A stretch of 64,000 nt of DNA. Origin: Myxococcales bacterium (GTDB lineage Bacteria > Myxococcota_A > Polyangia > Polyangiales > Polyangiaceae). The stretch lies in assembly GCA_016704525.1 (NCBI GenBank), contig JADIZX010000009.1, positions 42,625 through 106,624 of the forward strand. The letters run 5' to 3'. The notes under the pieces are model-generated. The model was given only the letters and a program-made list of their open reading frames with translations, did not search any database and was not told the origin of the DNA. The position numbers and the translations under genes were made by a program. Below, piece by piece: positions 7,081-64,000 of the stretch (its first letter is position 1; each line of letters begins with the position of its first letter).

Positions 7081-8382
7081 TCACGTGCCTAGGGGAATGC
7101 CGAGCGATTTTCGATCCCACAGGCCGCTGTCGCCCCCACCGCCGTCGGGCGCGTGCGTACCGCCGCCGTCGTCCGAGGCGCGCCCGAAGAACTCGAGCAG
7201 CTCGTCACGGCGCGCCTGGGCGTCCGCGCGCCCCATCTCGATGAGCTGCCGGCAGAACGGCCCGTCGAACAGCAGGTAGCTCGCGAGGTCGGCCTCGTCG
7301 CCGCCTCCGATGTCCAGGAGCGAGAAAAGACGCTTCGTAAGTAATGGATTTCCCTGAAACTTTCCCTTCCGCACGTGGACGGCGGCGAGCTTCCCGATGT
7401 CCTCGCTCGGCCTCACCGTGAGCGCCGTCACGTGGCGGTAGGGGCGCGCGCCGCGGCGCTCGGCCTCGACGCTCATCGCTCGCGTGAAGTCGGGCCCGTA
7501 GACCTTCGTGCCGTCGGCGACGACGTGGTTCACGCGGTTCAGCATCTCGATGTCGACGTCGACGTGGTCGAGCAGGAACGCGTTCAGGAGCTTCCCGAGC
7601 AGGAACGCGGCACCGGGCGAGCGCGCGCTCTCCTTGGCCGGCTCGACGACGCCGCGGACCTCACGCGAGCTCGCGATGGCGAAGATGTGGGTCGCGCCGA
7701 GGGCGAGGGCGGGCGCGATGGGCGTGTTCTGGCGGAGCCCTCCGTCGAGGTAGAGGTCGTGATCGATGCGCACCGGCGGGAACAGCAGCGGGATCGCCGC
7801 GCTCGCGAGCGCGTGCACCGGCCCGATGTGCGCCTGGCGGAAGAGGGTCCGCGGGGGCACGACGTCGGGCATCGCGACGTTCGGTGCAGTCTGCACAAAA
7901 ATCACCGTGCGGCCCGTCGCGACCTCGGTCGTCGACACGGTCAGCGCGCGGAGCTTGTTCTTGCGGAGCGAGCGGGCGACGGCGCGCCAGGAGATCTCTC
8001 GCCCGACGAGATCGGCCATCGGGCTCACGTCGAAGAGGCCCGTCCCCGCGCCCCCGCCCATCACCACGCTGGGGAGCCCGGCGAACTGGCGGAGCCCGAA
8101 GCCCAGCACGCGGGTGATCTCGAGCTCGGACCACAGGTGCACGAGCCGGCGCAGGCCTAGCACCGGATCGGCGAGGTGCGCGGCGAGGTAGCACGCGTTG
8201 ATCGCGCCCACGCTGGTGCCAGAGAGCACGTCGACGCGAGGCGGCCCGCCGCGCATCCGCGTGAGCTCCTCGAACACGTAGGAGAGGACGCCCACCTCGT
8301 ACGCGCCGCGGGCGCCGCCGCCCGAGAAGATCATGCCGACGCGCTTCGGCGTGGGCTCGCCCCCGCTGGTGATGCTGGTCAT
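7081..8382 (-). CDS. Patatin-like phospholipase
   Basis: Oxyanion hole GGGARG, nucleophile elbow GTSVG, and catalytic-Asp motif LYLDGGLRQNTP. 433 aa. ATG at 8382-8380 overlaps the upstream TGA at 8381-8379 (ATGA). Confidence 0.85.
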   Translation of the reverse strand: MTSITSGGEPTPKRVGMIFSGGGARGAYEVGVLSYVFEELTRMRGGPPRVDVLSGTSVGAINACYLAAHLADPVLGLRRLVHLWSELEITRVLGFGLRQFAGLPSVVMGGGAGTGLFDVSPMADLVGREISWRAVARSLRKNKLRALTVSTTEVATGRTVIFVQTAPNVAMPDVVPPRTLFRQAHIGPVHALASAAIPLLFPPVRIDHDLYLDGGLRQNTPIAPALALGATHIFAIASSREVRGVVEPAKESARSPGAAFLLGKLLNAFLLDHVDVDIEMLNRVNHVVADGTKVYGPDFTRAMSVEAERRGARPYRHVTALTVRPSEDIGKLAAVHVRKGKFQGNPLLTKRLFSLLDIGGGDEADLASYLLFDGPFCRQLIEMGRADAQARRDELLEFFGRASDDGGGTHAPDGGGGDSGLWDRKSLGIPLGT

Positions 8383-15764: not shown

Positions 15765-16554
15765 TCCGTCGACCCTCCCGTACGACCTCGACGGCGCGCT
15801 CGCGCACTACCGGGCCCACGGCTACGCGCGGCTCGGGCGCCTGCTGGAGGAGCCCACGCTCGCGGCGCTCCGCGCGCGCATCGACGCGCTGATGCTCGGC
15901 GAGATCACCTACCCGGGCGTCTTCTTCCAGCGCGACACCGAGACCGGCGAGTACGACGACCTCGCCTACGGGCGCGGGTACGAGGGGCCGTCGCTCAACT
16001 ACCGCAAGGTCGAGAAGCTCGAGAAAGATCCGCTCTTTCTTGCGTGGATCGCGCACCCGTGGCTCGAGCCGCTCGCGCGCGCGGTGTACGGCGGCGACGT
16101 CACGCTCTACCGCGCGCTCGTGTTCAACAAGGCGGCGGCGACCGGGGGCTCGCGCCTGCCTTGGCACCAAGACGGCGGCGCGTTCTGGGGCCTCGACCGC
16201 GAGCCGGGGCTCCAGGTGTGGACGGCCCTGGACGACGCGCCGGAAGACGGCGGCTGCCTCGAGGTCGTGCCGGGGAGCCACGCCGCGGGCCTCGTGACGC
16301 CTCTCGGAGGCGTGGTGCCGGCGGAGGCCATCGCACGCGAGCGCCCCGAGGCGCGTTCGCTCCTCTTGCCCGCGGCGGCGGGCGAGGTGCTGCTCGTGCA
16401 CAACCACCTCTGGCACCGCTCGGCGCGGAGCACCACGGGCAAGCCGCGCCGCGCCCTCACGGTCTGCTACCTCGACGCCCGCACCACGTGCCGCCGCAAG
16501 AAGCGCGCGCCGCGCGAGTTCTTCAAGGTGTTCCCGCGCGACCCGCGCGAGTAG
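15745..16554 (+). CDS. Phytanoyl-CoA dioxygenase (PhyH) family Fe(II)/2-oxoglutarate oxygenase
   Basis: HxD...H facial-triad context (WHQDG ... HNHLWHRS). PhyH-like length. Overlaps the AKR gene end by 20 bp, so probably an operon. Confidence 0.8.
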
Positions 16555-50292: not shown

Positions 50293-51735
50293 ATGCTTGC
50301 CGCGCTTTCGAAGCTGTCGATCAGCGACTTCATCGAGCCGGGGTCGACGTTCGCCGATCGGTACATCGTGGAGCGCGAGCTGGGGCGCGGAGGCATGGGC
50401 GCGGTCATCCTCGTGAAGCACCCGCAGCTGGGGAAGCAGTTCGCGCTGAAGGTGATGTTGCCCGAGCTCGCGGAGGACGAGCGGCTCGTGGAGCGCTTCC
50501 TGCGCGAAGGCAGGGCGACCGCCCGCCTCACGAGCGAGCACGTGGCGAGGGTCTTCGACGCGGGCCGCCACCCCGCGGGCTTCCCGTTCCTCGTCATGGA
50601 GTACCTGCAGGGGAAGAGCCTGCACGAGGTCCTCCATCGCGGCACCTCGCTCGACATCCCGACGGCGGTCGACCTGCTGCTCCAGGCCTGCGAGGGTGTC
50701 GCCCACGCGCACGCCGCGGGCATCGTTCATCGCGACCTGAAGCCCGCGAACCTGTTCCTCACCACGAAGGCCGACGGCGCGCCCTGCCTCAAGGTCCTCG
50801 ATTTCGGGATCGCCAAGGAGATCGGCGGCGCGAGCCCGATGACGGCGACGGCCGAGAGCTTCGGCTCACCCGAGTACATGTCGCCGGAGCAGGTGCGCGC
50901 GGCGAAGAACGTCGATCCCCGCTCCGACGTGTGGTCGCTCGGCGTCGTGTTCTTCGAGCTCCTGACACGCCGCGTGCCCTTCGAGAGCGCGTCGGTCTTC
51001 GAGGTCGCGTCGCTCATTCTCTCGGGCGCTCCCCACGACCTTCAGGCGCTCCGCCCCGACGCCCCGCGCGGCCTCGCCGACGTCGTCGCGCGCTGCTTCG
51101 AGAAGGAGCCCGGCCGTCGATGGCCTGACGTGAGCGCCCTCGCGGCTGCGCTCGCCCCTTACGGGCCCCCGGGCTCCGAAGCGCGCGCCGCGACCGTCGC
51201 GCAGATCCTCGGCACGACCGGGGGCGCGCTGTTCGCCCAAGTTTCCCTCGCGAAAGTGGACCCGCTCGGGGAAGCGGCGACCGAGCGCTCCGTGCCAGGA
51301 CGCAGCACCGGGTTCTCCTCTCGGCGGACCTTGAGCCGGGTCGCGCTTGGCCTGCTGGTCGTCTCCTTTGGCGCGGCGGCGTTCTCGGCCTGGGCGTTTC
51401 ATTCGTCGCGGCAGGCACCCGGCGGCGCAGGCCCCGATCCGCACGCCGCGGGGACAGGCGCGGCGACCGCGGCGGTGAGCCTCCCGTCCCCTCCACCCAG
51501 CTTGGCGCCCCTGACCGCCACGCCGCCACCGGCGACCGCGTCGGCGCCTGTGAGCGTCGCGACAACACCGGGGAGCGCGGGGCGCGCGCTCGTCCCCTCG
51601 CACGCAACGACCGCGAAGCCGGCCCCCTCGGCTTCGGCGCCGCCCCACGCGGCGTCTTCCGCTCCCGGCCCTACGGCGCCCGCCCCCTCGGCCTCCGCGC
51701 CGCGCGGGCCCGGGCTGTCGCGCCACGGCGAGTGA
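50293..51735 (+). CDS. Ser/Thr protein kinase with TM segment and Ala/Pro-rich C-terminal tail
   Basis: GRGGMGAVI, ALKVM, HRDLKPANLFL, DFGIAK, GSPEYMSPEQ. TM segment VALGLLVVSFGAAAFSAWAF. Start at the internal Met MLAALSKL. Confidence 0.8.
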   Translation: MLAALSKLSISDFIEPGSTFADRYIVERELGRGGMGAVILVKHPQLGKQFALKVMLPELAEDERLVERFLREGRATARLTSEHVARVFDAGRHPAGFPFLVMEYLQGKSLHEVLHRGTSLDIPTAVDLLLQACEGVAHAHAAGIVHRDLKPANLFLTTKADGAPCLKVLDFGIAKEIGGASPMTATAESFGSPEYMSPEQVRAAKNVDPRSDVWSLGVVFFELLTRRVPFESASVFEVASLILSGAPHDLQALRPDAPRGLADVVARCFEKEPGRRWPDVSALAAALAPYGPPGSEARAATVAQILGTTGGALFAQVSLAKVDPLGEAATERSVPGRSTGFSSRRTLSRVALGLLVVSFGAAAFSAWAFHSSRQAPGGAGPDPHAAGTGAATAAVSLPSPPPSLAPLTATPPPATASAPVSVATTPGSAGRALVPSHATTAKPAPSASAPPHAASSAPGPTAPAPSASAPRGPGLSRHGE

Positions 51736-51842
51736 AGCTCACCGTCACGGCGCCGTTGCGCCCCGCCGAGCGAAGATCGGCGCGGCTCAGCGTCGGAGAC
51801 GGTCGTGAAGACCTATCGCGCCCATCTATGAGACTGAATTAG

Positions 51843-53099
51843 TTAGAAGTGCTGGGTGATCCCGAACTGCGCGAACCAGGTCGCGATCGGGTGATGGATC
51901 CGTGCGACGTCGACGCGCAGCAGGGTGTCGACGAGCGCTGTCGGGAGGAGGCGCAGGCCGGCGCCGGTCGACCACGCCGTCATCGCCGGGGTGGAGGCTC
52001 CGCGCGCGTCCATCGGCTCGAACACCGCCGCGTCCGTAAACAGCACGCCTTGCACGTACCAGCGGCGCGCGATCTCGATGGCGTGTCGAACCTCCAGGTT
52101 GGCATACGCCTGCGACCGATTCCGGTAGAGCGAGTCGGGCAGACCTCGCACGCCCGCCTGGCTGCCGAGCAGGGCGCTGTGGTTCGGGTTCCCGCCGTTC
52201 ACCGCGCTCGCGCTCGCATTGAGCATGAGAACGGTCTTGTTCCCCAGCGGCAGCCCCGCGATCGCCTTGGCCCTGAGCTCATGCCGAGGTTCGGCCGGTC
52301 CGACGAAGATGCCGGGCCGCAGCTCGAGCGCCGCGCGGAAGCCCCGGGGAGTGAGGTCGTTCCAGGTATACCGGTCATAGACAAGCTCGCTCGTCGTACC
52401 GAGGTAGGTGCCGTCGCGTGGCTGCGAGGGCCCGGACGCGCCGGTGAGGGTCTCTTGATAGGCGTTCAGCTGAAACTCGTATCGCCACTTCGTCGTGTAG
52501 AACGAGGGCGAGAGAAACTCCACCTCCGCGCCCAGGCGGTTTCGCTGCCACGTGTGTTGCGCGTCCGCACCCTCGAAACGGAAGCCGGAGCCTGCGTAGT
52601 AGATCTCCTGCTCGCGCGCCCAGCTGCGCGGGCGGTACGGGTGCTCGTGGAGCCAGAGGATGAAGTTGAGGCCTCGCTCACTGTAGCTCGCCTTTCCACC
52701 CAGGCGCGTCCCGTGGCCGTCCACGTCATGCTGAATCGCACCGAGCGTGAGCTTCGAGTCGGCCAGCGTCTTGCCCGTGGAGAGATCGAAGATCGGTGAG
52801 AGGGTGAACTTCCTGCGGACGCGGACGAGCAGCGTCGTGCCCGTGTGGTCGACCTCGACCTGGTCGAAGAGCGCGAGGGTCCTGATACGTCGCCGCAGCT
52901 CGACGAGCTCGGCGCCAGTGAACGACGAAGGCAGCGGCCTCGGCAGCAGCTCGCTGATCGTCTCTGGCTCGGTCTTCTCCAGACCTTCGCTCCGCAGGGT
53001 CTCGATCGCGTAGGTGGCGGACGGGTCGAGGTCAGCCCCCGCGGGGGTCGCGTACATCAGCGAGGCGAGTCCACACGCGAGGAGGAGTGGACGCTTCAT
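51843..53099 (-). CDS. Outer-membrane beta-barrel protein of the bacterial surface antigen (Omp85/ShlB-like) family
   Basis: Signal peptide. POTRA-like N-terminal region. C-terminal barrel with alternating residues ending in an aromatic residue (…GITQHF). Its start overlaps the BlaR1-like gene stop. Confidence 0.6.
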   Translation of the reverse strand: MKRPLLLACGLASLMYATPAGADLDPSATYAIETLRSEGLEKTEPETISELLPRPLPSSFTGAELVELRRRIRTLALFDQVEVDHTGTTLLVRVRRKFTLSPIFDLSTGKTLADSKLTLGAIQHDVDGHGTRLGGKASYSERGLNFILWLHEHPYRPRSWAREQEIYYAGSGFRFEGADAQHTWQRNRLGAEVEFLSPSFYTTKWRYEFQLNAYQETLTGASGPSQPRDGTYLGTTSELVYDRYTWNDLTPRGFRAALELRPGIFVGPAEPRHELRAKAIAGLPLGNKTVLMLNASASAVNGGNPNHSALLGSQAGVRGLPDSLYRNRSQAYANLEVRHAIEIARRWYVQGVLFTDAAVFEPMDARGASTPAMTAWSTGAGLRLLPTALVDTLLRVDVARIHHPIATWFAQFGITQHF

Positions 53100-53917
53100 G
53101 GGCTTCCCGCGAGGATCGCGACGTACGGCGCGGACGCGACGACCCCGAAGACGAACGCGGCGATCGCGAGGCTCACCGCGAAGGGCGCCAGGAACGAACG
53201 GCGCCCCTCGGGGTGCGGCGCCGGTGGGGAGAGCAACCGGCGGACACGGATCTCGAGGAGCGTCGCGTCGTCTGCCAGGGCCGCCCCCGCCCTGGTCCGC
53301 CCCTGGGCAAGGCTCGCCGCCTTGACGAGGGCGCTCGCGAGGTCGGCCGCGTCGACGTTCGGGTCCTGGACGGCCTCGTCATCGCGCGCGAGCTCGAGCG
53401 CCGCGAGCCAGGCGCGCTGTCGGAGTCGTGGGCGAGAGAAGGGCCATTGGAGATCCGTCAGGAGCTGCACGATCCAGATCCAGCGCGGATCGCAGTGACG
53501 GACGTGCGCCTCCTCGTGAGCCATCACGGCACGGAGCTCGCCGGGGCGCAGCATCGCGAGCAGCTCCGCGCTGAGCTTGACCGTGGGACGGAACAGACCG
53601 ACGGTCAGCGCCGGCCCCTCGACCTCGGCGAACACCGCGAGGACGGCCCGCACGCCCGCGCGTAGCCATACGAGTCCAAAAGGCACCGCGGCGATGAGGC
53701 GCGTGACGTTCAATCCCTGCGGGCCCTCGGGATCGGCGACCGCAAAGCCGAGCAGGACGAACAACGGCAGCGACGCGGGCAGCGCTGGAAGCCAGAGACG
53801 GCGCCACGCGACTCGCTCCCCCGCATCCGGCGGAGTGGGCACGAGCGCCCCGAAGAGCCATATGAGCGCGCCGCTCAGGAGGACGATGAGCAGCTCCGCG
53901 ACTTCGTCACGATCCAC
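53096..53917 (-). CDS. BlaR1-type M56 family membrane metalloprotease signal transducer
   Basis: Four TM segments with the HExxH zinc motif (AVMAHEEAHVRH) in the cytoplasmic loop. Overlaps the blaI stop. Confidence 0.75.
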   Translation of the reverse strand: MDRDEVAELLIVLLSGALIWLFGALVPTPPDAGERVAWRRLWLPALPASLPLFVLLGFAVADPEGPQGLNVTRLIAAVPFGLVWLRAGVRAVLAVFAEVEGPALTVGLFRPTVKLSAELLAMLRPGELRAVMAHEEAHVRHCDPRWIWIVQLLTDLQWPFSRPRLRQRAWLAALELARDDEAVQDPNVDAADLASALVKAASLAQGRTRAGAALADDATLLEIRVRRLLSPPAPHPEGRRSFLAPFAVSLAIAAFVFGVVASAPYVAILAGSP

Positions 53918-54293
53918 GACGACTCCTCCGGCGGGCGGCGATCTCCTCGGCGAGACGGTCGAGCAGGGCGGGATCGTACGTCTCGACCGCGTCGACGAGC
54001 CTGGCCACCGCGGGCTCGGGATCGCCTCCGAAGATGCGGCTCACCAGGTCGCGAACGCGTGAGCGCTCCACGGCGCGTTCCGGCCTCGCAGGTCGAAACA
54101 CGAGCGCCCTGCCGTCCCGCTCGCGGGTCACGAACCCCTTCTTGTGGAGCCGATCGAGGACGGTCGAGATGGTCGTGTAGGCGAGCCCTCGTGGCACGCC
54201 GACTCGCTCGTGCACCTCGCGCACGGTGCACGTGCCAAGCTGCCAAACGGCGGAGAGGATCTCGTGCTCTTGCTCACCCAGCGTCGACGTCAT
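53907..54293 (-). CDS. BlaI/MecI/CopY family transcriptional repressor
   Basis: Winged-helix Penicillinase_R family (EILSAVWQLGTCTVREVHERV...GLAYTTISTVLDRLHKKGFV). 128 aa from the Met at MTSTLGEQ. Confidence 0.8.
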   Translation of the reverse strand: MTSTLGEQEHEILSAVWQLGTCTVREVHERVGVPRGLAYTTISTVLDRLHKKGFVTRERDGRALVFRPARPERAVERSRVRDLVSRIFGGDPEPAVARLVDAVETYDPALLDRLAEEIAARRRSRRGS

Positions 54294-54314
54294 GTTGGGT
54301 TCAGCGTCTACTAC

Positions 54315-54350
54315 TACATCTGTAGAATGAGTCAACTACACGTGTAGAAG
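54315..54350 (-). promoter_or_regulatory. Two TACA-N2-TGTA dyads (BlaI/MecI-type operators) overlapping a TTGACT -35-like hexamer upstream of blaI
   Basis: On the minus strand: TTCTACACGTGTAG-TTGACT-CATTCTACAGATGTAG...ATG. Dyads TACACGTGTA and TACAGATGTA lie 25-55 bp upstream of the start. Confidence 0.6.
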
Positions 54351-54384
54351 GTGGGCGCCATCCAGCGCGCAGGCCATCGCCCGC

Positions 54385-55299
54385 TCAGGCTCGAGGTCGG
54401 GCCGAGAGCACGGAGGGTCCCTGCAGCACGCGCTCGCTGTCTCCCTCGATCGCCCTCACCCAGGCCTCCCAGCGAATGGGCTGGCGTGCGAAGACGAGCT
54501 CCTCCGCGGTCACGCTCGGGTGCTCGCCCTCCGCGCGGCCCCCCCTCACGACCGGCGCGAGAGAGCCGGTGCCACGGAGATCGTAGACGAGCTCCGTCCG
54601 AAAGCCCTCCTCGGGCCAGACGATGAGCCCCTCGTCCGCGATGTCATAGCGGGCCCCCTCTCCGATGAGCGCCTCGATCTGCTCGCGCACGAGATCGACC
54701 GCCGCGAGCTTGTAGAGCCCAGACAAGACCGTCTCCATGATCGCCCGCTGTTCGGGCGAAAGGACCGCGAAGAAGCCCGGCTCGCCCACGCTCGCGACGA
54801 GCCAGCCCGACTGCTCCTCGAAGTGAAGCCACGCCACGTCGCTGGCTTCCCGCTCACCCTGTTCATGGGGCGACGCGCGCAGCTCGAGGCCGACGCGGAT
54901 TCGGTTCGATCCGACCCTCACCGCGTGCACGAGGACCTCGCCCGAGGTCCACCGCCGGACACGACGCAGGAGCCCCGCGAGCTCACGCTCGACGAACGTC
55001 GTGAGACCGCGCTCGACCTCGCGGACTCCCTCTCGGTGCGCGTTCACCGAGCGCGCCCCACGTCGCGCCGCGAGCCTCAGCTTCGCGAAGAGCTTCGGGA
55101 CCGTGCCCGAGTGAAAGCCGACCACGAGCAAGCCGTTCATCGTCTCGCCGTGATGGCCAATCCGAACAGGCTCGAGCGACTCGGCGCGATTGTGTGCGTA
55201 GAGCTCCCAGTTCTCGTTGAGCTCCCACACCAAGAAGCCGAAGACGCCGGGCAGCAGGAACACCGTGGTGCCCGCGACGGTGTTCGCCACGACGGCCCC
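54385..55299 (-). CDS. C-terminal ~300-aa continuation of the same membrane protein in the +1 frame (possible frameshift or pseudogene)
   Basis: Protein-like sequence (TVFLLPGVFGFLVWELNENWELYAHNR...) begins exactly where the upstream frame degenerates. The two frames switch at a C5 (G5 on the coding strand) homopolymer at ~55296-55300. Confidence 0.45.
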   Translation of the reverse strand, partial: GAVVANTVAGTTVFLLPGVFGFLVWELNENWELYAHNRAESLEPVRIGHHGETMNGLLVVGFHSGTVPKLFAKLRLAARRGARSVNAHREGVREVERGLTTFVERELAGLLRRVRRWTSGEVLVHAVRVGSNRIRVGLELRASPHEQGEREASDVAWLHFEEQSGWLVASVGEPGFFAVLSPEQRAIMETVLSGLYKLAAVDLVREQIEALIGEGARYDIADEGLIVWPEEGFRTELVYDLRGTGSLAPVVRGGRAEGEHPSVTAEELVFARQPIRWEAWVRAIEGDSERVLQGPSVLSARPRA

Positions 55300-57806
55300 C
55301 GGAGAGGGACGAGGGGCGTCCGCATCGCCTCGAGGAGGGTCGGGGCCATCGGGAGCAAGATCTTGTGCGAGACCGTGACGACCGGAAAATGTTTGATCGG
55401 GTTCACCTGCGGCTCGATGAGCAGGTTCACGTACACACGCACGAGGTAGGTCACGAAGAACCACACGAGCCCGAACGCGCCCTTCATGACGACGGCGAGG
55501 GTGCCCTGCCCGTCCCGGAAGGTGAGCCACTCGTCGACCGTGTAGATGCCCCGCTCCACGCGCTCGACGGCGCGCCGAGAGACATCGAGCGCGAGCGCGA
55601 CGAGCCCTGGGATCACGTGGCGCCGAAGGTTACCAATGCCGCGCAGGACGAGGTCGCTCGCCGACTCCTCCATCCGCGCGCCGAACGGGGTCCCGAAGAA
55701 GAGCGCCGCGACGACGAAGACGCCACCGGCCGCCGCCGCGCTGCCCGGAGCGGCGAGACCGTGACGCCGGGCGAACAGGAAACCGGGCGCCCCGAGGACG
55801 AGCGGCTTCAGCACCAACCGCGAGAAGAGCGCGAAGGGCGCGCTGCGAAGGAAGGCCTTCACGACGGGGCGGCTGAGGACCCACGAGGGAATGCCCACGA
55901 AGACGGTCCGCACCGCGGAGCCCGCAGAGGACAGCGCGCCGAGCGCGGCCCGCCGAAAGGGGAGACTGTGAAGCAGTCCATAGACGATGAGCGCCACCAC
56001 GGCCATTGAGAGGGTGGTGCGAATCGGAACGTGCGGATGACCGACTTTCTTGCCTATCCCGTGGGCCAGGTGCTGGAGAGCTTCGAGGAAGACGAACGCC
56101 GCGAGCAGGGGGATGACGGCGTGCAACGTGATCTTGCGGCCAAGAGAGGTACCAAAGGCCACTCCGCTCGCCTTCTGCAGCCCCCGAAGATAGACCTCGC
56201 CGGGTCGGTACACGCCATCGAGGCGAAGCGACAGCTGCCGATCCGCGCGGAGCAGCGCGTCCCCGCCGGTCAAGGCGGCGAGGGTGAGATTCCCCATCTT
56301 GAGGTTGCTCCGAGAGAGCGCGTCGCGAAGCTCTGACAGCCCCAGGAATCCCCGTTCCAAGATCTGGTCCAAGATCTCCGCGCAGAGCTTCTCTCGCGCG
56401 ACCTCCTCCGGCACGTTGGAGGGGCGCAAGCCGACCTCGTCGAGCACCGCTGTGAGGACCGGGAGGACCGAGCGCTCCACGTTCGTTCGAGCGCGGGAGA
56501 CGGCCGAGCGAAAGGTCGTCTCCAGGTCGCGCCTGTCGCCCGCCCCGATCTCGGCGCGGTGCGAGGTCACGAACGCGTGATGGAGGCGGCGCGCGATCCT
56601 GACGCGCGTGGCCATCGGCAGCGGACGCACGATCCGGCGTCGAAAGCCGGACGTCACCCAGGTGATCACGTCGACCGCGCGGCGCTCGCGCTCATGCTCC
56701 ACGCAGGCCTTCTGGAGGTCGAAGAGGACCCTCGCCTCGAGCGACCGCGGTGACCATGCGCCCGCCGCCCGCTCGGCGAGCGGCGCGAGGGTGCGCTCCC
56801 ACTCCGCCGCTATGGGGCCCGCCGGGCCCGCCTGCTCCGCCGGGTCGTCGTGCTCGGGTCGGAGCGCGGCCACGAGGCGAGCCGCGAGGGTCGAGAGGTC
56901 GGCGGTCGCGCCCGCGCGCGCTTCGGGAGTATCCAGCTGGAGCTGCAAGATCGCGGCGCGTGCGTGGTTCCCGTCGCTCCTGACGCGTTCGGCGAGCGCC
57001 CGGAGCACCCCGACGCGCGCCCCGGCTTGGGCCGCCGCGCGAGCGTCCCCGGCGAGCACCCGGCCGCTCTGCCGACGAGGCTCGCCGTCGCGCTCATCGC
57101 GCGGTGCGGGCGGCGCCCCCGCGGGACGCGAGCGGGCGAGCAGCGCGGCCGCGTCGAGCTCGAGGGCGAGCGCAGCTTCGACACGCGCCGTGTCCTCGAG
57201 GGTGGGGAAATACTTCGCGAGGTCTTGGGCCGCGAAGTGCCGCAGCTCGAGGAAGAAGGCGGCAAACTCGATATAGGCCTCCGCGTCGTCCCCTGGCGAA
57301 AACAGGAGGTGCTCGCCCTCGAGGACGGCGCGTATTTCGTCGAACTCGGTCTGACCGATTTGGTCAATCTTCGCCTTGAGCTCCGCGCTCCCCAGCGCGC
57401 CGCTTCGCACGCGGCTCTCGAGCTCGGCGTGCACGTGGCCATGGAACGCCGCCCGCCAAACGGCAGGGGCTCGATCGAGCTCCGGGAGGTCTGGCCGGGC
57501 GACGAGGATCACGCTCTCCGGGAGCTCGGCGACGCCGAGGTCCTCGAGACGGACGAGGCCCTCGAGGGCGGCGCGCGGCAGGACGATCACGTGCCCGTGC
57601 GGGACCTGGAGGCCCATGCCCGTGATTCCCCGATAGCGCTTCACCACGCGGCGCACGAGCCTCGCGTCCGCGACGACGGCCCGCGCCGTAGCCGCCTGCG
57701 TGGGCCCCCCTCGCCGCTCGGCGCCGTCGTCCGAAGGCGTGTCGACCATGGCCCACTCTACCGCGAAGACGCGAGTCATCGCAGCTCGCGGCGCGGCGGC
57801 GCGCAC
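55137..57806 (-). CDS. Large polytopic membrane protein, N-terminal ~830-aa fragment (frame breaks at ~55300)
   Basis: Long ORF with multiple TM helices in its C-terminal half and no recognisable catalytic motifs. Sequence quality collapses into Ser/Cys/Arg junk for the last ~54 codons. Confidence 0.55.
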   Translation of the reverse strand: MRAAAPRAAMTRVFAVEWAMVDTPSDDGAERRGGPTQAATARAVVADARLVRRVVKRYRGITGMGLQVPHGHVIVLPRAALEGLVRLEDLGVAELPESVILVARPDLPELDRAPAVWRAAFHGHVHAELESRVRSGALGSAELKAKIDQIGQTEFDEIRAVLEGEHLLFSPGDDAEAYIEFAAFFLELRHFAAQDLAKYFPTLEDTARVEAALALELDAAALLARSRPAGAPPAPRDERDGEPRRQSGRVLAGDARAAAQAGARVGVLRALAERVRSDGNHARAAILQLQLDTPEARAGATADLSTLAARLVAALRPEHDDPAEQAGPAGPIAAEWERTLAPLAERAAGAWSPRSLEARVLFDLQKACVEHERERRAVDVITWVTSGFRRRIVRPLPMATRVRIARRLHHAFVTSHRAEIGAGDRRDLETTFRSAVSRARTNVERSVLPVLTAVLDEVGLRPSNVPEEVAREKLCAEILDQILERGFLGLSELRDALSRSNLKMGNLTLAALTGGDALLRADRQLSLRLDGVYRPGEVYLRGLQKASGVAFGTSLGRKITLHAVIPLLAAFVFLEALQHLAHGIGKKVGHPHVPIRTTLSMAVVALIVYGLLHSLPFRRAALGALSSAGSAVRTVFVGIPSWVLSRPVVKAFLRSAPFALFSRLVLKPLVLGAPGFLFARRHGLAAPGSAAAAGGVFVVAALFFGTPFGARMEESASDLVLRGIGNLRRHVIPGLVALALDVSRRAVERVERGIYTVDEWLTFRDGQGTLAVVMKGAFGLVWFFVTYLVRVYVNLLIEPQVNPIKHFPVVTVSHKILLPMAPTLLEAMRTPLVPLRGPSWRTPSRAPRCSCCPASSASWCGSSTRTGSSTHTIAPSRSSLFGLAITARR

Positions 57807-57842
57807 CGCCGAGCCGAGGCGAACGCTTGGACGCGCGCAAAC

Positions 57843-59243
57843 TTAGGCCCAGATCGTGCGCTCGAGCTCGTCCATGAGGGACGCGGCGAGCGCGGGAGAC
57901 GGCACCCCCGCTCGCTTCGCGAGCTCGGCCTCCGGCGCGACACGAAGCTCCGCCCGAAGCGCCGACACGGCCTCGGTCATCGCCCGACGGACGTCGTCGC
58001 GCTGGGTCCCGGTGAGGTTCCGGAGCGACCACCGGTGCAGGCGCCACGACAGCTCCGCGTGGCGGGTCTCGTCCGCGGCGATCGCGGACATCGCGGCGCG
58101 GATCGTGGGGTCTTCTGCGCGCGCGGCCTGCACATGCGCGACGACCGCGCCGTACGTCTCGCGCACGCACCCCTCGACCGCGTTCTCGCGCGCGACGGCG
58201 TTCAGTCCCCGAGCCCCCACGCCCTCGACGCGGGGGCGGAGAGGCGAGACCCCGTGGCGGCGCGCGAGCCGCGCGGTGACGCGTGCGTGCCGCACCTCGT
58301 CCCGAGCGGCGCGCTTCGCGCGACGAACGAGGCGCTGCGGCGCCCCGGCGCGCGCGAGCTCCCCCGCGAGCCTCCGGAAGGAGACGACGCTCGCGCCCTC
58401 GAGCTCGGCCGCGCGCGCGAAGAAGCGCCCCACGGAGGGCGCGCCCGCGGCGTCCGGCTGGGCGACGAGCCCCTCGGGGCGCCGGCCGATCGCGCACGGA
58501 TCCGCGGGCAGCGACTTTCGCGCGACCGGGGTCACGGTGCCGTCCGTGGCGACCTTCACCGAGACCTCCTCCTCGACGAAGCAGTTCGCGTAAGGGAACG
58601 ACAGGTCGTAGCCGGTGGCCGTCGCGGTCGCGCGCGGCACGAGGTTCGGGTACTTGGTGCTGCAGAGCGGACTGCCGCCTCCGAAGAAGCGAGACATGAG
58701 CCACGCCTCGCCCGGGGTGTCGATCGGTCCAAAGAGCGCCTTCGCCTCGGCGAGCGTCGACGCCTTGCCGACCGTGTCTCCCCGCGTGAACACGATGTAG
58801 GACGTCAGACACCCCTCCGGCGGCCCAGCCTGATTCTGGCGACACGACGCGGGATCGGCGGGCTCGGGCAAGATGCGCAGCGCCGCGAGGGCGGCTTGGC
58901 ACTTCGCGGGGTCCGTCGCCGTTCCGCACGGTGTGCCCGCACCCTCGCTCTGGCTCGCTTTCCATTGCGCCACGAGGCCCGCGTCCGGGAGTGGGCCGCC
59001 GTCGCCTTGGGGCGTCGTCGCGTCAATGGCCTCCCTCCTCGCGCCGATGTAGTCGACCGCGACGGGGAGGCGCACGTCTTCGAAGGTGGCGGGGGGCCGG
59101 CAGGGGCCGCCGGGTGTTCCGCCCTCGGACGTACCGCCGTCGGAGGTGCCGCCGTCGGACGTTGATCCGACCGACCCACACCCCGCGCCGAGGACAGCCA
59201 GCGCCACCCCACGAATGACCGTCGACAACGCGCGTCTTTGCAT
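57843..59243 (-). CDS. Lipoprotein with Gly/Ser/Thr/Asp repeat linker and C-terminal ferritin-like helical domain
   Basis: Lipobox LAVLGAGCGS. TSDGGTSDGGTSEGGT is encoded by a 15-bp tandem repeat at ~59118-59172. C-terminal helical region with E/H-rich pairs resembling the ferritin-like superfamily. Confidence 0.55.
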   Translation of the reverse strand: MQRRALSTVIRGVALAVLGAGCGSVGSTSDGGTSDGGTSEGGTPGGPCRPPATFEDVRLPVAVDYIGARREAIDATTPQGDGGPLPDAGLVAQWKASQSEGAGTPCGTATDPAKCQAALAALRILPEPADPASCRQNQAGPPEGCLTSYIVFTRGDTVGKASTLAEAKALFGPIDTPGEAWLMSRFFGGGSPLCSTKYPNLVPRATATATGYDLSFPYANCFVEEEVSVKVATDGTVTPVARKSLPADPCAIGRRPEGLVAQPDAAGAPSVGRFFARAAELEGASVVSFRRLAGELARAGAPQRLVRRAKRAARDEVRHARVTARLARRHGVSPLRPRVEGVGARGLNAVARENAVEGCVRETYGAVVAHVQAARAEDPTIRAAMSAIAADETRHAELSWRLHRWSLRNLTGTQRDDVRRAMTEAVSALRAELRVAPEAELAKRAGVPSPALAASLMDELERTIWA

Positions 59244-59392
59244 CCGCGCAGTATGCGGCACTTCGGATCTGCCGGCACGCGCGGAATCACGCGCCGCGGC
59301 GAACCCGCTCGCCGAGCTGACTTATCGACCGGCGAAGCGTGGGGGCGAGACAGAGACAAGGCGCCATGCCATCGCGCATCGCGCGGGGTCGC

Positions 59393-59836
59393 TCACTCCT
59401 CGATGGCTTCGATGCCCTGCTCCGCCAGACGCGCCAGGCCGTCCTTCATGGCCTGCAGCTGCGCGGGCGCGTGTCCCTTCCACTCGGTGAGCTCGCCGAT
59501 GACTCGGAGCGGGGCCCGCGTGCGGTACGACCTCGTCGGGTTGCCTGGGAACTTCCTGTCCGTGAGGTTGGGATCGTCCTCGATCGGCCCGGTCGGCTCG
59601 ACGATGTAGATCCGGCCCGGTTCGCCTCCGACGGCGAGCTCTGCGCCCCACGTCGCGGCGTCCAGGGTGGCGGTCAGGTACACGAAGGCCGCGTTCTTCC
59701 TCTCGCCGTAGTTCGAGGCGTGACCGGGCCGGATCAGGTCGCCCGGCGTCAAGGCGGCCTTCGTGCCGTGGAGGTACCCCGGCGCGCCGAGGCTATCCGT
59801 CCACACCTGGAACGGCTCTGGTGGCAGCGTCGTCAT
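59393..59836 (-). CDS. arr: NAD(+)--rifampin ADP-ribosyltransferase
   Basis: Colinear match to the Arr family including HGTKAxLxxGDxI, WGAEL, and GRIYIVEPTGPIEDDPNLTDRKFPGNPTRSYRTRAPLRVIG. 147 aa from the internal Met MTTLPPEP. Confidence 0.85.
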   Translation of the reverse strand: MTTLPPEPFQVWTDSLGAPGYLHGTKAALTPGDLIRPGHASNYGERKNAAFVYLTATLDAATWGAELAVGGEPGRIYIVEPTGPIEDDPNLTDRKFPGNPTRSYRTRAPLRVIGELTEWKGHAPAQLQAMKDGLARLAEQGIEAIEE

Positions 59837-60171
59837 TGGCCGCGACGTTACGCGAGTCGCCGGGGCCGCGCGCTCGATCTCAAGACCAAGCATGTCACCG
59901 ACGGCGGCGACTCCGGCGGGCCGCTCTTCATCGAAGGGACCCACAAGCTCGTGGGCACCGAGACGCGCTTCAACCCGACGACCAACAAGGACTTCTGGGC
60001 GCGCCTGGACGGCGCCGTCTACACGTGGATCGCGGGTCGAGTGACCACGCACGGCGGCTGGGGCGCGACGTCCTCGCGCTGGTAGCGCCGGCGGCCCCAC
60101 CGAGCGCGCGGCGACAGCCCTGCGCGCCGCGAGCCCCCGCGCGACCTTCGCGAATGGTAAGAAGGGCTTCG

Positions 60172-60771
60172 ATGGCGCCGGTCATTCCCGATCCCCAACG
60201 CGTCCGCAGCTTCGAGGACGGGCCCGCGTTCGAGGCGTGGCTCGCCACGCACCACGCGAGCGAGCGCGAGCTGTGGCTGAAGATCCACAAGAAGGGCTCT
60301 GGGCTCCCCACGGTGACCTACGCGGAGGCGCTGGACGTCGCGCTGTGTTGGGGCTGGATCGACGGCCTGAAGAAGTCGTTCGACGAGGCCTCGTTCCTGC
60401 AGCGCTTTACCCCTCGCAAGCCGCGGAGCGTGTGGAGCCAAGTCAACCGCGCCCACGTCGCGCGCCTCATCACCGCCGGGCGGATGACGGAGCACGGCCA
60501 GCGACACGTCGAGGCCGCCAAGGCGGACGGGCGCTGGGATTCGGCTTATGCCCCGAGCAGTCAGATGACCATCCCCGAGGACCTGGCGGCGGCCACCAAG
60601 GCCGTGCCGGAGGCGCTCGCGACGTTCGAGCAACTCACGAAGCAGAACGTGTACGCGCTCGCGTATCGCACGCGCAGCGTGAAGACCGCGTCGGCGCGCG
60701 CCGTGAAGATCCAAACCTTCGTGGCGATGCTGGCACGCGGCGAGACCATCTATCCGCAAAAGGCGCAGTAG
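60172..60771 (+). CDS. ydeI: YdeI/OmpD-associated family protein (DUF1801-type)
   Basis: Family-typical features along ~199 aa (FEAWLATHHASERELWLKIHKKGSGLPTVTYAEALDVALCWGWIDG, ...YPQKAQ C-terminus). Confidence 0.7.
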   Translation: MAPVIPDPQRVRSFEDGPAFEAWLATHHASERELWLKIHKKGSGLPTVTYAEALDVALCWGWIDGLKKSFDEASFLQRFTPRKPRSVWSQVNRAHVARLITAGRMTEHGQRHVEAAKADGRWDSAYAPSSQMTIPEDLAAATKAVPEALATFEQLTKQNVYALAYRTRSVKTASARAVKIQTFVAMLARGETIYPQKAQ

Positions 60772-60840
60772 ACCCGCGCGAAACTTCATGTCCACGTCGG
60801 AGTATCGGTGGCGACCTGCACGTGTACCGCGCGTCACGCG

Positions 60841-61620
60841 TCACCGGTACGGTGGCCCCAGCACCTTGCCCCGATGAAAGCGGATCAGGCAGAACCGCTC
60901 CGCCGCGTGCCGCGTGGCCTCCGCGAGGCGCTCCTCCGCGCGGGCGCGAGGGTAGGTCCCAACGTGTGCGCGCCCCCGGTAATGCGTGGTCAACATGCGG
61001 TGGTAGGCGCGACGCCCAGGCAGGTCGAAGCCGTGCGCCAGGATGTGTAGGACGTCCTCCATGGTCGACGTGTCGTCGTTGAGGACGTACACGGCCACTT
61101 CCGCGTCTTCGACCTCCGCCTCCTCGGGCAGATCGTCCCTCGGCGACACGTCCAGAACGGCGCGGAGCGCGCATCCGGCGAGGAGCCGCGCGGTCTCGCC
61201 CTCGGTGGCCCCAAGCCCGGCGACCAGGTCTCCGCGCGACATGACGGTCGCGCCTCGACGACGGGTGCGCTCGAACGCGTGCGACAGCATGTGGCCGACC
61301 CTCGGCGACGGAGCGCCCGCTCGGGCCTCGGCCGCGACCGCGGGGGAGGCCAAGACGGGGAGCAGGGCCTCGCGTGCGGCCTCGACGGCCCCGGGCGTGC
61401 CGTCGCGCAGCCAAGCCTCAACGGCCTCGTCCTCGAGCGCCGCGAGCAGCACGCGCTCGGGCGTCGCGTGGAGCTGGTCGTAGCCGAGCGCGTCCCCTGC
61501 GGCCAGCTGGAGGATGACCCGCGTCTCGGGGGCGAGCGGGTAGTTCTCCCACGGATGCGCGCGCTCCTGACGGGGAAGCAAGCGCGAGAGCCACCGTGCG
61601 ACCCACTGGACGGCGTTCAT
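60841..61620 (-). CDS. ClpS-like Clp protease adaptor fused to an N-terminal Clp_N-like repeat region
   Basis: C-terminal ClpS core (VAVYVLNDDTSTMEDVLHILAHGFDL...HYRGRAHVGTY). N-terminal helical repeats resembling Clp_N. Start at Met MNAVQWVA. Confidence 0.65.
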   Translation of the reverse strand: MNAVQWVARWLSRLLPRQERAHPWENYPLAPETRVILQLAAGDALGYDQLHATPERVLLAALEDEAVEAWLRDGTPGAVEAAREALLPVLASPAVAAEARAGAPSPRVGHMLSHAFERTRRRGATVMSRGDLVAGLGATEGETARLLAGCALRAVLDVSPRDDLPEEAEVEDAEVAVYVLNDDTSTMEDVLHILAHGFDLPGRRAYHRMLTTHYRGRAHVGTYPRARAEERLAEATRHAAERFCLIRFHRGKVLGPPYR

Positions 61621-61701
61621 GGTTCGAAGTACGCGCGGCGCGCCGCCTTCTTCCCTGATCTCCCGCGCCGCTGCCTGCGGCCCGCGCGAGCTGACGATCA
61701 T

Positions 61702-62127
61702 TCAGTGGACAGTGCGTGGTGGCCCCAGCGCGACGATTGGGTTCTGTGGAAACGGAGCCGCGCGATGCGAGCTCGAGACGACGAGGACGGCAAGCCGCCC
61801 CGCGATCTCGAAGGTCGCAACCGTGGCGGGCGCGCCGAAGTAGCGGATCGGCAGGAGGTCGACGCCGCTGTCCGTGGCTTCCGAGCACGTTGACGATTGC
61901 GTCGGCGCTTCGACGTGGTGGAGCGAGGAGAGGGCCTTCTGATAGCTCTCTCCCGTTCTCGCCATCCTCGCCCGCACCGCGAGGATGGCGAAGCGGGCAG
62001 CGCCCAGCTCGTGATCCGCCATGTGCGCCGTGGCGGCGGCGTGGCCTGCCGCGCGGGCTACCTCGCGGGCGGCGGCGTCGGATGCGCTCCTGGCGGCTGC
62101 GTGTGCGGCGAAGGCTGCCTCCCGCGC
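61702..62127 (-). CDS. Hypothetical protein (weak call)
   Basis: The C-terminal ~90 aa of track ORF 61702..62463 are protein-like (ESYQKALSSLHHVEAPTQSS...). The N-terminal part overlaps the tandem repeat and is probably not coding. Start guessed at the internal Met. Confidence 0.3.
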   Translation of the reverse strand, partial: AREAAFAAHAAARSASDAAAREVARAAGHAAATAHMADHELGAARFAILAVRARMARTGESYQKALSSLHHVEAPTQSSTCSEATDSGVDLLPIRYFGAPATVATFEIAGRLAVLVVSSSHRAAPFPQNPIVALGPPRTVH

Positions 62128-62182
62128 CATGCCCACCGTGGCCTCGCCCCTCGCCCACGCCCGGACGACCTCGCGGGGCTCA

Positions 62183-62355
62183 GGGGCGATGACCAAGAGC
62201 GGCGCGCAAGCGCCGCGAACAGGGTGGAGGCGCCGGGAATCGACCACCCCTGTACGGAGGCCTGGCGCAGTCCAGGGGCGCGATGACCAAGAGCGGCGCG
62301 CGAGCGCCGCGAACATTGTGGAGGCGCCGGGAATCGAAAACGGTTCCCGGCGTCC
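62183..62355. repeat. Tandem direct repeat, two copies of ~93 bp, each with a GC hairpin (GAGCGGCGCGCAAGCGCCGC) and a CGCCGGGAATCG motif
   Basis: Copy 1 at ~62183-62274 and copy 2 at ~62275-62355, over 85% identical. Repeated peptides in overlapping ORFs confirm the duplication. Confidence 0.6.
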
Positions 62356-62612
62356 AAAAAGACACCGGAAACCCCGAAGAAAGCGACCTTCGCGACCGGG
62401 ATACCCTACCAGCCGTTGCGATATTCGACGCTTCGCAACCGGCCGTTGCTGAACACGCGTCACGGGGACGGGTGGGCAGCGCCGAGGGTACCACGCCCGA
62501 CCCTCTCGAGGCCACCATCCGCGCTGGCCTCGACGCCCTCGTTCAGGCCGCCATCCGGGCGGAGCTCGAGCGCAGGCGCGGAGCCTCGGAGTAGAGCGCG
62601 ACGAGCCGGTGA

Positions 62613-62870
62613 AGGCTCAAGAGACGGCACCTCAACGAGTCGCAGAGGGGCATGGTCGCGCTCGCGGTGGAGAAGTTGTACGCGGCGGAGGCGAAGCCGA
62701 AGAGTACGGCCAATCTCAAGCGTGGGACAGAGAAGCCCGAGGTGGCAGATTTGCCACCTCGGGAATCGGGCGACCCGGTCAAGGCGAGAGAGAGGGCCGC
62801 CGCCGCCCTGAGCGTCTCACCCCGTCTCGTGCAAGACGCCAAGAAGGTCGACCGAGGCTCGCCAGGATGC
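62613..62870 (+). pseudogene. Remnant of a phage/plasmid ParB-like (ParB/Srx nuclease-associated) gene: internal fragment only
   Basis: Frame encodes ...ESQRGMVALAVEKLYAAEAKPKSTANLKRGTEKPEVADLPPRESGDPVKARERAAAALSVSPRLVQDAKKV, matching the conserved central region of phage ParB-like proteins. It is preceded by an in-frame stop, lacks the ParB N-domain, and degenerates afterwards. Local GC is lower. Confidence 0.4.
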
Positions 62871-63277
62871 CCCAGGACGCGCCCGCCGGCCGAGGGTGGC
62901 CGTTGGGTCACCCGGTGCGCGCGGAGGCCGCAGCGGGCAACGTGGCGAGGGTCAACTTGCCCCCGGATACAAGTTGCAGGCGCGCCAGCAACCCCGGCCG
63001 TCATGACCTCGGTTGCCCGGCGCGAACGGTTCGACGGCGCCGACCCTGGACCGTTCGCGCCGCTAACTACGCGGAATTGTTCGTTGCCGGATTCTCTGGC
63101 AGTGCTTTTCCTGCGGGTTTTCGACGGCGCCGTGCGCGCGGGAAAGTCGGGGGAAAGTCCCCACGTTCGTGCACCGCGACCTGTCGGAACTTCGCCCGAG
63201 CGCAGCGCCTCGAAGCCCTCGGAGTCGAGCCCAAGCCAGCCCTCCAGGGAGGCCGAAGGTGTTCCGCGACCTCTGAG

Positions 63278-63526
63278 TCAGGCCGCCGCGGAGGCGGTCG
63301 CGGGTTCGCTCCACAGGGCAACGTCGATCCCAAGGAGCACGTGGTACGCGGACACGAGGTCACCGCCCGGTGCTGTGCCCGTGAGCGCGCGCCCCACCGA
63401 CGACTGGGAGACCCGACGTCCGACGCGAGCGGAGAGCATGTCCGCGACCGCCTGCTGTGTGAGGTGCTTCGCCGTCATGATGCGCGCAAGCTCGACGGCC
63501 GCACGCGTGAGTTGTGTTCTACGCAT
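63278..63526 (-). CDS. XRE/cI-like helix-turn-helix transcriptional regulator
   Basis: 82-aa HTH core LTQQAVADMLSARVGRRVSQSSVGRAL. Divergent from a second HTH gene. Confidence 0.55.
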   Translation of the reverse strand: MRRTQLTRAAVELARIMTAKHLTQQAVADMLSARVGRRVSQSSVGRALTGTAPGGDLVSAYHVLLGIDVALWSEPATASAAA

Positions 63527-63606
63527 CGGACGATCATTCTAGCGCAGGATCGATCGTCGTCAACCGTCCTTGCGTGACGCGCGCATCGCTTCTAGGCTTC
63601 GGGCGC

Positions 63607-64000
63607 ATGACCAAGGGAGTGCACCCCGATGCAAGAGCCTACGTCCGGGAGGTGTTCGCGGAGCTCCTACGGAGCCGCTCGCAACGGGAGCTCGCCCACG
63701 AGCTGGACGTGCATCAGAGCCGTGTGAGCACCGCATTGAACGTGGGGCGCGTGGCTCCGGAGACGCTCGAGCGGGCTGCAGCACTTGCGGGGCGCTCGCC
63801 CGAGGAGGTGCGCGACGCGCTCTCCACGATCGGTCCGGGGCTCATTCAGCAGAATTTCCCGGGCGTACCGACGGCAGCTCGCGTGACCCGCCACGAACTG
63901 TCTCTTGAGCCCGCAGTGCTCGCGGTCAAAGCCTACGTGCCGAACGCCACCCCGGATGAGGCCGCGATTGTGGCAAGCGCCCTGCAGCGCTGGGGCATGC
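63607..64000 (+). CDS. Cro/XRE-like HTH protein, 3' partial (open to window end)
   Basis: ATG at 63607, no stop before 64000. HTH core SQRELAHELDVHQSRVSTALNVGRV. Divergent arrangement with the cI-like gene across an 80-bp intergenic region. Confidence 0.5.
   Translation, partial: MTKGVHPDARAYVREVFAELLRSRSQRELAHELDVHQSRVSTALNVGRVAPETLERAAALAGRSPEEVRDALSTIGPGLIQQNFPGVPTAARVTRHELSLEPAVLAVKAYVPNATPDEAAIVASALQRWGM

Follow-up and report, generated by a model that had tools for sequence, protein, structure and literature searches.

The right-hand end of the 64,000-nt stretch of Myxococcales DNA analyzed here (contig JADIZX010000009.1 of GCA_016704525.1; hereafter the window) carries two short direct repeats, an internal fragment of a ParB-family gene, and two divergently transcribed helix-turn-helix (HTH) genes, the second of which leaves the window. 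We propose that these features make up the attachment-site (att) end, attR, of a genomic island inserted into ssrA, the gene for transfer-messenger RNA (tmRNA). The repeats are 61 nt long (62183-62243 and 62277-62337), differ at 4 positions (93% identity), and start 94 nt apart. An initial annotation, made by a model from the letters alone, had described two hairpin repeats of ≈93 bp; the two direct repeats and the GC hairpin in each are as described, and the length and spacing are corrected to 61 nt and 94 nt. The 33-nt spacer between the copies is not repeated, and similarity falls sharply beyond the 61 nt. Each copy contains a 7-bp GC stem (GCGGCGC/GCGCCGC) with a 4-nt loop, the folding of which is by itself unexceptional (z −1.2 to −1.8). 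Read on the minus strand, each repeat starts with TCGATTCCCGGCGCCTCCAC, laid out as the remainder of a T-loop, the 3′ strand of a T-stem, and the 3′ strand of an acceptor stem with discriminator A, followed by the hairpin and then TCTTGG. To judge from this layout, each repeat resembles the tail of a tRNA-like gene together with its terminator. A 34-nt pattern derived from the repeats matches the 64-kb window exactly twice, a count of at least 2 that none of 100 shuffles reached, and the 19-nt tRNA-like end likewise has exactly two occurrences. ARAGORN and Rfam return no tRNA, tmRNA, or any other RNA family over the window; the 20-nt fragments are too short for such searches.

The remainder of the locus was read in a near-identical assembly, GCA_963852875.1 (contig L001, 814 kb). 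The ClpS-fusion protein of the window is encoded identically on that contig, and over the last 13 kb of the window (50841-64000) the two sequences are 99.67% identical, with 33 mismatches and 7 indels, none of them within the repeats. The differences, which cluster at 58113-58236, include a 2-nt indel at 55300 that splits a 1130-aa open reading frame (ORF) in the window and indels near 58113-58360 that break a 472-aa ORF in the L001 assembly; either strain variation or long-read assembly error would account for them. Coordinates beyond the window are given in L010, a walked stretch of the same locus in the orientation of the window that was reached via a protein found by homology search (window ≈ L010 + 59672). 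An intact tmRNA gene lies ≈13.7 kb rightward of the repeats, at L010 16328-16685 on the minus strand (window-equivalent ≈76,000-76,357), and is identified both by ARAGORN (tag ANDNAIALAA) and by Rfam RF00023 (170 bits). Its 3′ end reads ...GGGTTCGATTCCCGGCGCCTCCAC, and both window repeats open, in direct orientation, with the final 20 nt of this sequence. The window repeats are thus displaced ssrA 3′ ends with their terminator rather than generic hairpin repeats, and the features of this junction are as follows.

62318-62337, minus strand: core 2, the displaced final 20 nt of ssrA (TCGATTCCCGGCGCCTCCAC), identical to the intact tmRNA 3′ end in L010; attR junction
62224-62243, minus strand: core 1, the same 20 nt (TCGATTCCCGGCGCCTCCAC) as core 2, on the same strand as ssrA
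62224-62317, minus strand: mini-unit of 94 nt, reading AATGTTC, hairpin 1 (62293-62310), TCTTGGTCATCGC, hairpin 2 (≈62245-62279), TGG, and core 1
62149-62223, minus strand: second, partial unit, reading CCTGTTC, hairpin 1 (62199-62216), TCTTGGTCATCGCC, and a hairpin-2-like CGCCCCT...AGGGGCG, with no further core
62342-62373, minus strand: terminator-like hairpin of 14 bp, followed by GTTTTCG, abutting core 2
62415-62426, plus strand: motif GTTGCGATATTC, a candidate integrase arm-type site

No further ssrA fragment is present leftward of the repeats within the window. At the island edge, the 14-bp hairpin probably serves to stop leftward transcription. We considered GGACGCCGGG, upstream of core 2, as the remnant of an extended tmRNA T-arm; it fits better as the 3′ strand of this same hairpin.

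A tyrosine integrase gene adjoins the intact ssrA. It occupies L010 15405-16310, stops 18 nt away from the ssrA 3′ end on the opposite strand so that the two genes converge, and matches Pfam PF00589 with 30.9 bits (cut-off 27.1) and PHROG_1 with E=5.6e-22. The catalytic histidine and tyrosine are found only after repair of a 1-nt frameshift: an extra G at L010 16088 restores ...WCAVRGDDPLRIKQRAGHAAFTSTEVYIRE..., which aligns with the intact integrase of another locus, L007, that abuts tRNA-Ser and is 48-49% identical to the island enzyme. The repaired frame (L010 15300-16330, window-equivalent ≈74970-76000) runs through the att core into the ssrA antisense strand, and that of the L007 homolog likewise runs through tRNA-Ser. 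Integrases that converge on ssrA in two further loci (L121 and L046) are similarly related, and the integrase clade of the island thus targets both tRNA-Ser and ssrA elsewhere. The 9-mer GCGATATTC occurs only 3 times in the 20.7 kb of L010, always within ≈100 nt of an att core. Two of these copies form an inverted pair on the integrase arm and one lies on the other arm at window position 62418, which makes the motif a candidate integrase arm-type site on both arms.

The island extends from about window position 62338 to ≈76000, roughly 13.7 kb, and housekeeping genes (HIT, DAO) resume past ssrA in L010. The nearest named homolog of the HIT protein is from Labilithrix luteola (74%), which points to a Labilithrix-related, Polyangia-like myxobacterial metagenome-assembled genome as host. 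An unoccupied ssrA was sought through the neighboring HIT gene; in the nearest genome (79% HIT), ssrA is absent next to that gene. Rightward from attR, the gene order is a 191-aa HTH gene, ORFs of 202 and 56 aa, a 314-aa primase-like gene, a 567-aa helicase-like gene, 8 ORFs that match no known family, the integrase gene, and ssrA. The divergent pair at its left end comprises the following features.

63278-63526, minus strand: 82-aa XRE/cI-like HTH gene, with weak HTH and fold matches
63607-64000, plus strand: HTH gene, first 131 codons in the window (191 aa in the related assembly), directed rightward toward the replication module
63536-63563, minus strand: sigma-70-like promoter TTGACG-16-TAGAAT, matching at 10 of 12 positions (0.1 expected in shuffles), directed toward the 82-aa gene

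The geometry of two short divergent HTH genes across an 80-nt gap, with the rightward one leaving the window, is as initially annotated, and no repeated operator was found in the gap. It is plausible that the transcription unit of the 82-aa gene ends at the island edge, because the promoter in the gap points leftward and the terminator-like hairpin abuts core 2.

Overall, we consider it highly probable (≈0.88) that the region is the attR end of a ≈13.7-kb genomic island in the 3′ end of ssrA of a Polyangia-like myxobacterium. The initial annotation had proposed the attachment-site-proximal end of a mobile element with its body beyond 64000 and had suggested extending the sequence in search of an integrase, a tRNA or tmRNA attB, and a counterpart of the repeat at the other end; ssrA, the integrase, and the 20-nt core are all found ≈13.7 kb away in the 99.67%-identical assembly. 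In the history we propose, the integrase would recombine the attP core of the island with the T-loop-to-acceptor part of ssrA. The island would bring a new 3′ end, so that ssrA stays intact, and the former ssrA 3′ end and its terminator hairpin would be moved to the opposite side, where they form attR (core 2). The target would already have held an older 94-nt core-bounded unit, which the incoming island would have pushed outward together with what lay behind it; core 1 would thus exist because ssrA carried this mini-unit before the island arrived. The divergent HTH pair by attR would be the probable on/off switch of a rightward operon (small ORFs, primase, and helicase-like genes), and this operon would replicate the excised circle.

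Several observations weigh against this interpretation. The island body and ssrA come from a near-identical assembly and not from the sequence of the window. Composition offers no independent support, with the island at 70.5% GC, equal to its flanks; the lower-GC patch of the initial annotation exists (68.1% at 62338-64000 relative to 71.5% for the window overall) and is a modest effect. The HTH assignments are weak: the HTH_3 and HTH_31 matches fall below the Pfam cut-offs (19.5 and 18.9 bits), a sequence search of the PDB gave no match for the 82-aa protein and only three chance-level matches for the 191-aa protein (E 0.42-1.9), and the AlphaFold model of the former (pLDDT 68.5) has as its top fold matches only lambda-repressor-like, XRE, and TP901-1 CI N-domain structures, all weak (E≥0.075). 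Among the 16 island ORFs, 10 have no detectable family, and no excisionase was recognized. Finally, the L010 integrase is disrupted relative to its homologs, with one G missing from the G-run at 16088, a further frame change in the N-terminal region near 15340, and an upstream in-frame stop. Given these lesions, the island may be immobile. Assembly error is as likely a source of them as decay, because the 7 indels that separate the two assemblies over 13 kb each break long ORFs. The initial description of the element as degraded holds only for the ≈0.9 kb next to attR, and the integrase lesions fit decay and assembly error alike.

The 94 nt between core 2 and core 1 appear to be an older, core-bounded insertion separate from the island. 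Core 2 and its terminator would have formed the end of ssrA before the island arrived, because the present island supplies a different sequence (TGTAACG...) after its core; the 94 nt that separate core 2 and core 1 would then represent the earlier insertion. The partial unit that follows core 1 shows the same TGTTC-hairpin-TTGGTCATCGCC arrangement as the full unit, and the start of an Imm5-like gene follows at ≈62133. To look for related units, we scanned metagenomes using the ssrA 3′ end and ranked the loci by ssrA similarity. The exact core plus terminator pattern gave zero matches in viral and metagenome contigs, and a shorter ssrA-end pattern did match. Units of 89-119 nt, bounded by ssrA 3′ fragments and located after ssrA or after a displaced ssrA fragment, are present in at least 8 metagenomic loci: two each in L032 (427-651), L129, and L054 (4926-5035 and 7841-7950), and further examples in L077 (1947-2059), L033, L064, L107, and L096, where the unit (≈8014-8121) sits between two islands. 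Their consensus reads C(T/C)CTG(T/G)TC, a GC hairpin, GCTTGGTCATCGCC, a second hairpin (xxxCCTGTAC...GTACAGGxxx), GG, and TCGATTCCCGG... The hairpin-1 sequence is unrelated between lineages, and the TG.TC, GGTCATCGCC, and CCTCCGTACAGG motifs are conserved. No tmRNA gene lies upstream of the first core in L129, L033, or L107, where the units sit behind a further insertion, as they do in the window. Rfam does not contain the unit, and a motif search of the 0.9 Mb of DNA examined found it only between ssrA cores.

One account of the 94-nt unit makes it a neutral scar, left when a once larger island lost all but its two ends, with neither mobility nor function; we regard this as a serious contender that stays short of even odds. 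Tandem elements are well known to decay into remnants flanked by att sites (PMC5704250), and the more distal unit is the more degenerate one both in the window and in L129. The L054_u2 and L077_u1 units, 98% identical in hosts whose ssrA genes are 92% identical, look vertically inherited. Other properties of the family fit a scar poorly. The join of the left part (GGTCATCGCC) to hairpin 2 is the same in all lineages, and hairpin 2 is kept paired by compensatory changes: it is paired in 89% of cells (25-45% in slid controls), 6 of its 12 pairs change on both sides, and its covariation score was reached by 0 of 500 shuffles. The right part of the unit is conserved to the same degree as ssrA itself (70-85% identity between lineages with ssrA 71-79% identical). 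Two subtypes coexist in L054 and were acquired at different times, L054_u1 being 94% similar to L129_u1 in a pattern that fits a later arrival. The unit is also absent from some lineages, with none directly after the ssrA end in L028 or L052 and none after the displaced fragment in L052. The two subtypes in one array and this patchy distribution are the indirect evidence for a possible mobilization, in cis or in trans, by a related integrase. Because of this fixed internal join, the covarying hairpin, and the presence or absence of the unit among lineages, the ≈100-nt unit seems to be more than a random scar. We tentatively suggest, as a possibility that we rate as rather unlikely, a previously undescribed unit family: either a hitch-hiking element resembling a miniature inverted-repeat transposable element (MITE) or a miniature cis-mobilizable element (CIME) spread by island integrases at the tmRNA gene of Polyangia-like Myxococcota, or a hairpin module kept for ssrA, for example for termination or insulation as islands arrive and depart.

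Two further explanations of the unit were tried and rejected. A small antisense ORF starting from the conserved ATGACCAAG would have to cross the variable hairpin and the ssrA antisense strand, and a tRNA-like minihelix fold has no partner strands for the T-stem or acceptor. The surveyed loci also yielded observations of a more general kind. A 2.8-kb core-bounded segment lies between the two units of L054 (5036-7820) and contains small ORFs and a 433-aa ORF that is transposase-like by eye only, showing that unrelated cargo accumulates in the ssrA array of this locus. A common sequence type, CACGGGACC-hairpin-GTCGCTTTGTGGGGA.GCGTTG...GTTGTGCAACGCG, follows the last core in L028, L032, L052, and L064, and GTTGC-type direct repeats stand beside the core in L096, L036, L050, L071, and the island studied here; both are probably integrase arm sites. 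Within the window, the surroundings of the conserved GGCGATGACCAAG in the unit (62177-62197) are similar to the region where the 191-aa HTH gene starts (63595-63615), with 76% identity between GGCTCAGGGGCGATGACCAAG and GGCTTCGGGCGCATGACCAAG, possibly by chance.

The island genes bear on what kind of element this is. The 314-aa primase-like protein matches PHROG 3228 and 9765, and the 567-aa helicase-like protein matches phage primase/polymerase-helicase families over their C-terminal half (PHROG 29234, E=5e-62; PHROG 19930); sequence searches of the PDB gave no match for either. In a scan of genome contigs, relatives of the helicase-like protein (31-57%) lie near tRNA-Leu, Ser, Phe, and Tyr genes. 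In PHROG and Pfam, the 16 island ORFs gave no match to families of capsid, terminase, portal, tail, lysis, relaxase, or coupling proteins, and PADLOC found no defense match among the 10 ORFs without a family. By its gene content, the island appears to work like a satellite-type or integrative-plasmid-type element, and its transfer would depend on a helper because no packaging or conjugation genes were detected.

A degraded temperate prophage, in which the HTH pair would be a true cI/cro switch and the structural genes would be lost or too divergent, is an improbable alternative. In its favor are the divergent geometry of the HTH genes and the promoter between them, the resemblance of the 82-aa fold to phage CI N-domains, and the decayed ParB fragment, and the helicase-like protein has 30-32% relatives on viral contigs of 54-56 kb. 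The lack of any virion or lysis family among the 16 ORFs speaks against it, as does the size of the island: 13.7 kb is too small for a tailed phage, and the related L007 element is more compact still, with ≈4 kb from helicase to integrase. The "prophage-like" label of the initial annotation is not supported. Least probable is a local tandem duplication or regulatory hairpins of the repetitive extragenic palindromic (REP) type with no link to site-specific integration: the copies are adjacent, 93% identical, and hairpin-bearing, as such an origin would have them, yet each starts with the exact final 20 nt of ssrA in the correct orientation, similarity stops sharply outside the 61 nt and leaves the 33-nt spacer unrepeated, only these two adjacent copies exist in 64 kb rather than many unlinked ones, and distant lineages have the same core-bounded unit at their ssrA, with differing hairpin-1 sequences. 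The initial annotation had named a lack of integrase, structural, or conjugative genes downstream, together with a dispersed REP-like repeat, as grounds to abandon the mobile-element reading; an integrase is present, and the repeat is undispersed in the DNA examined.

Between attR and the HTH pair lies decayed DNA that includes one recognizable gene remnant.

62613-62870, plus strand: internal fragment of the ParB-N-domain family (pseudogene remnant), preceded by TGA at 62610-62612 and reading RLKRRHLNESQRGMVALAVEKLYAAEAK...SPRLVQDAKKV

The fragment alone has no match in Pfam, NCBIfam, or PHROG, and tblastn against plasmids found none. It has 376 homologs at E≤1e-3, which align from about their residue 80 and carry an N-terminal ...ILDGRNRxxAC domain with the DGRNR motif; Pfam gave a single weak ParB_N match on the best of them. 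A profile of these homologs matches Noc/Spo0J/ParB structures in the PDB (E=3e-6 to 1e-3), which bears out the initial annotation of an internal ParB-like fragment after a stop codon, followed by decayed sequence. The segment is thus an internal fragment of the family from which the N-domain is gone and in which the frame decays after ≈80 residues. As in ParB, Noc, and Spo0J, the full-length homologs have a ParB N-terminal (Srx-like) domain with its arginine-rich motif, whereas the coding frame of the window copy lacks this domain as well as the C-terminal part, begins after a stop, and cannot encode a functional protein. We infer that the fragment and the ≈0.9 kb around it are decayed island DNA.

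Several smaller features were seen in the same interval. A faint inverted trace of a ParB N-domain at 62970-63041 on the minus strand (VEPFAPGNRGHDGRGCWRAC compared with EPIVLYEGRILDGRNRHRAC; 5 of 8 homologs match, with non-significant E) may be a rearranged remnant. The public assembly calls a 295-aa gene, P0061, that starts inside the ParB fragment and runs antisense over the 82-aa gene; this call is probably spurious. A perfect palindrome with a 12-bp stem, CCCGAGGTGGCA AATC TGCCACCTCGGG on the minus strand (62736-62763), falls within the frame of the ParB fragment (PEVADLPPRE). In the noncoding DNA from this fragment to the 82-aa gene are a perfect 13-bp inverted repeat, CGGCGCGAACGGT / ACCGTTCGCGCCG (63018-63030 / 63050-63062), and a terminator-like hairpin (63082-63104).

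To the left of the units, two genes are encoded on the minus strand.

61702-62133, minus strand: Imm5-like immunity gene, with an Imm5_like match
60841-61701, minus strand: ClpS-domain fusion gene, with a domain match

The same flank (≈59400-62133; L010 1-2458) also contains an OmdA/DUF8412 gene and an Arr-ms gene of the rifampin ADP-ribosyltransferase type. These left-flank genes could be old island cargo.

The ssrA island is in itself a known kind of element with a textbook-type explanation, and unsurprising; any novelty would lie in the mini-unit alone. An ssrA island with precise bounds, a 20-bp att core, and candidate arm sites is helpful for annotation in a poorly studied myxobacterial lineage, and its att system is potentially an integration tool for Polyangia. 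If units of ≈100 bp are indeed spread by integrases or selected at ssrA, the concept of CIMEs and accretion would reach down to the MITE-like scale, and mini-units would also account for orphan ssrA fragments that island finders now discard.

Comparison with described systems places the island and the unit as follows. The island resembles P4-like satellites and phage-inducible chromosomal islands (PICIs) in its size class (10-15 kb), tyrosine integrase, primase/helicase-type module, small divergent HTH regulators, and lack of virion genes. It differs from them in that its regulators lie at the end opposite the integrase, ≈12 kb away rather than adjacent, and in that it has no recognizable packaging-redirection genes (sid/psu/delta, terS, cpm, and similar); no sequence-level tie to either family was found. 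The closest parallels are the tDNA islands cataloged by Islander and TIGER, the ends of which are marked by a regenerated tDNA and a displaced fragment (Hudson, Lau & Williams 2015, PMC4383910), and the ssrA-specific tandem islands of Dehalococcoides, with their 20-bp repeats and core-bounded segments in tandem (McMurdie et al. 2011, PMC3146451). In all of these, as here, the target gene is kept intact by the island, the far end bears a displaced 3′ fragment of ≈20 nt in direct orientation, the integrase gene adjoins the target and its frame runs into it, the crossover falls in the T-loop/acceptor part, and several core-bounded segments lie in tandem. Unlike the Dehalococcoides elements, which use a serine recombinase, the present island uses a tyrosine recombinase; its host belongs to the Myxococcota, and its cargo is a primase/helicase-like module together with ORFs without known family. 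The mini-unit, in turn, recalls the CIMEs, att-bounded remnants without an integrase that are carried by a neighboring element (Pavlovic 2004, Bellanger 2011; reviewed in PMC5704250). Like them, it is bounded by att cores on both sides, encodes nothing (it contains no ORF), and stands in tandem with an integrase-bearing island in an accretion geometry. CIMEs are, however, in the kilobase range, far larger than the 89-119 nt seen here, and unlike them the unit is a candidate only for mobilization and is conserved across lineages with a covarying hairpin.

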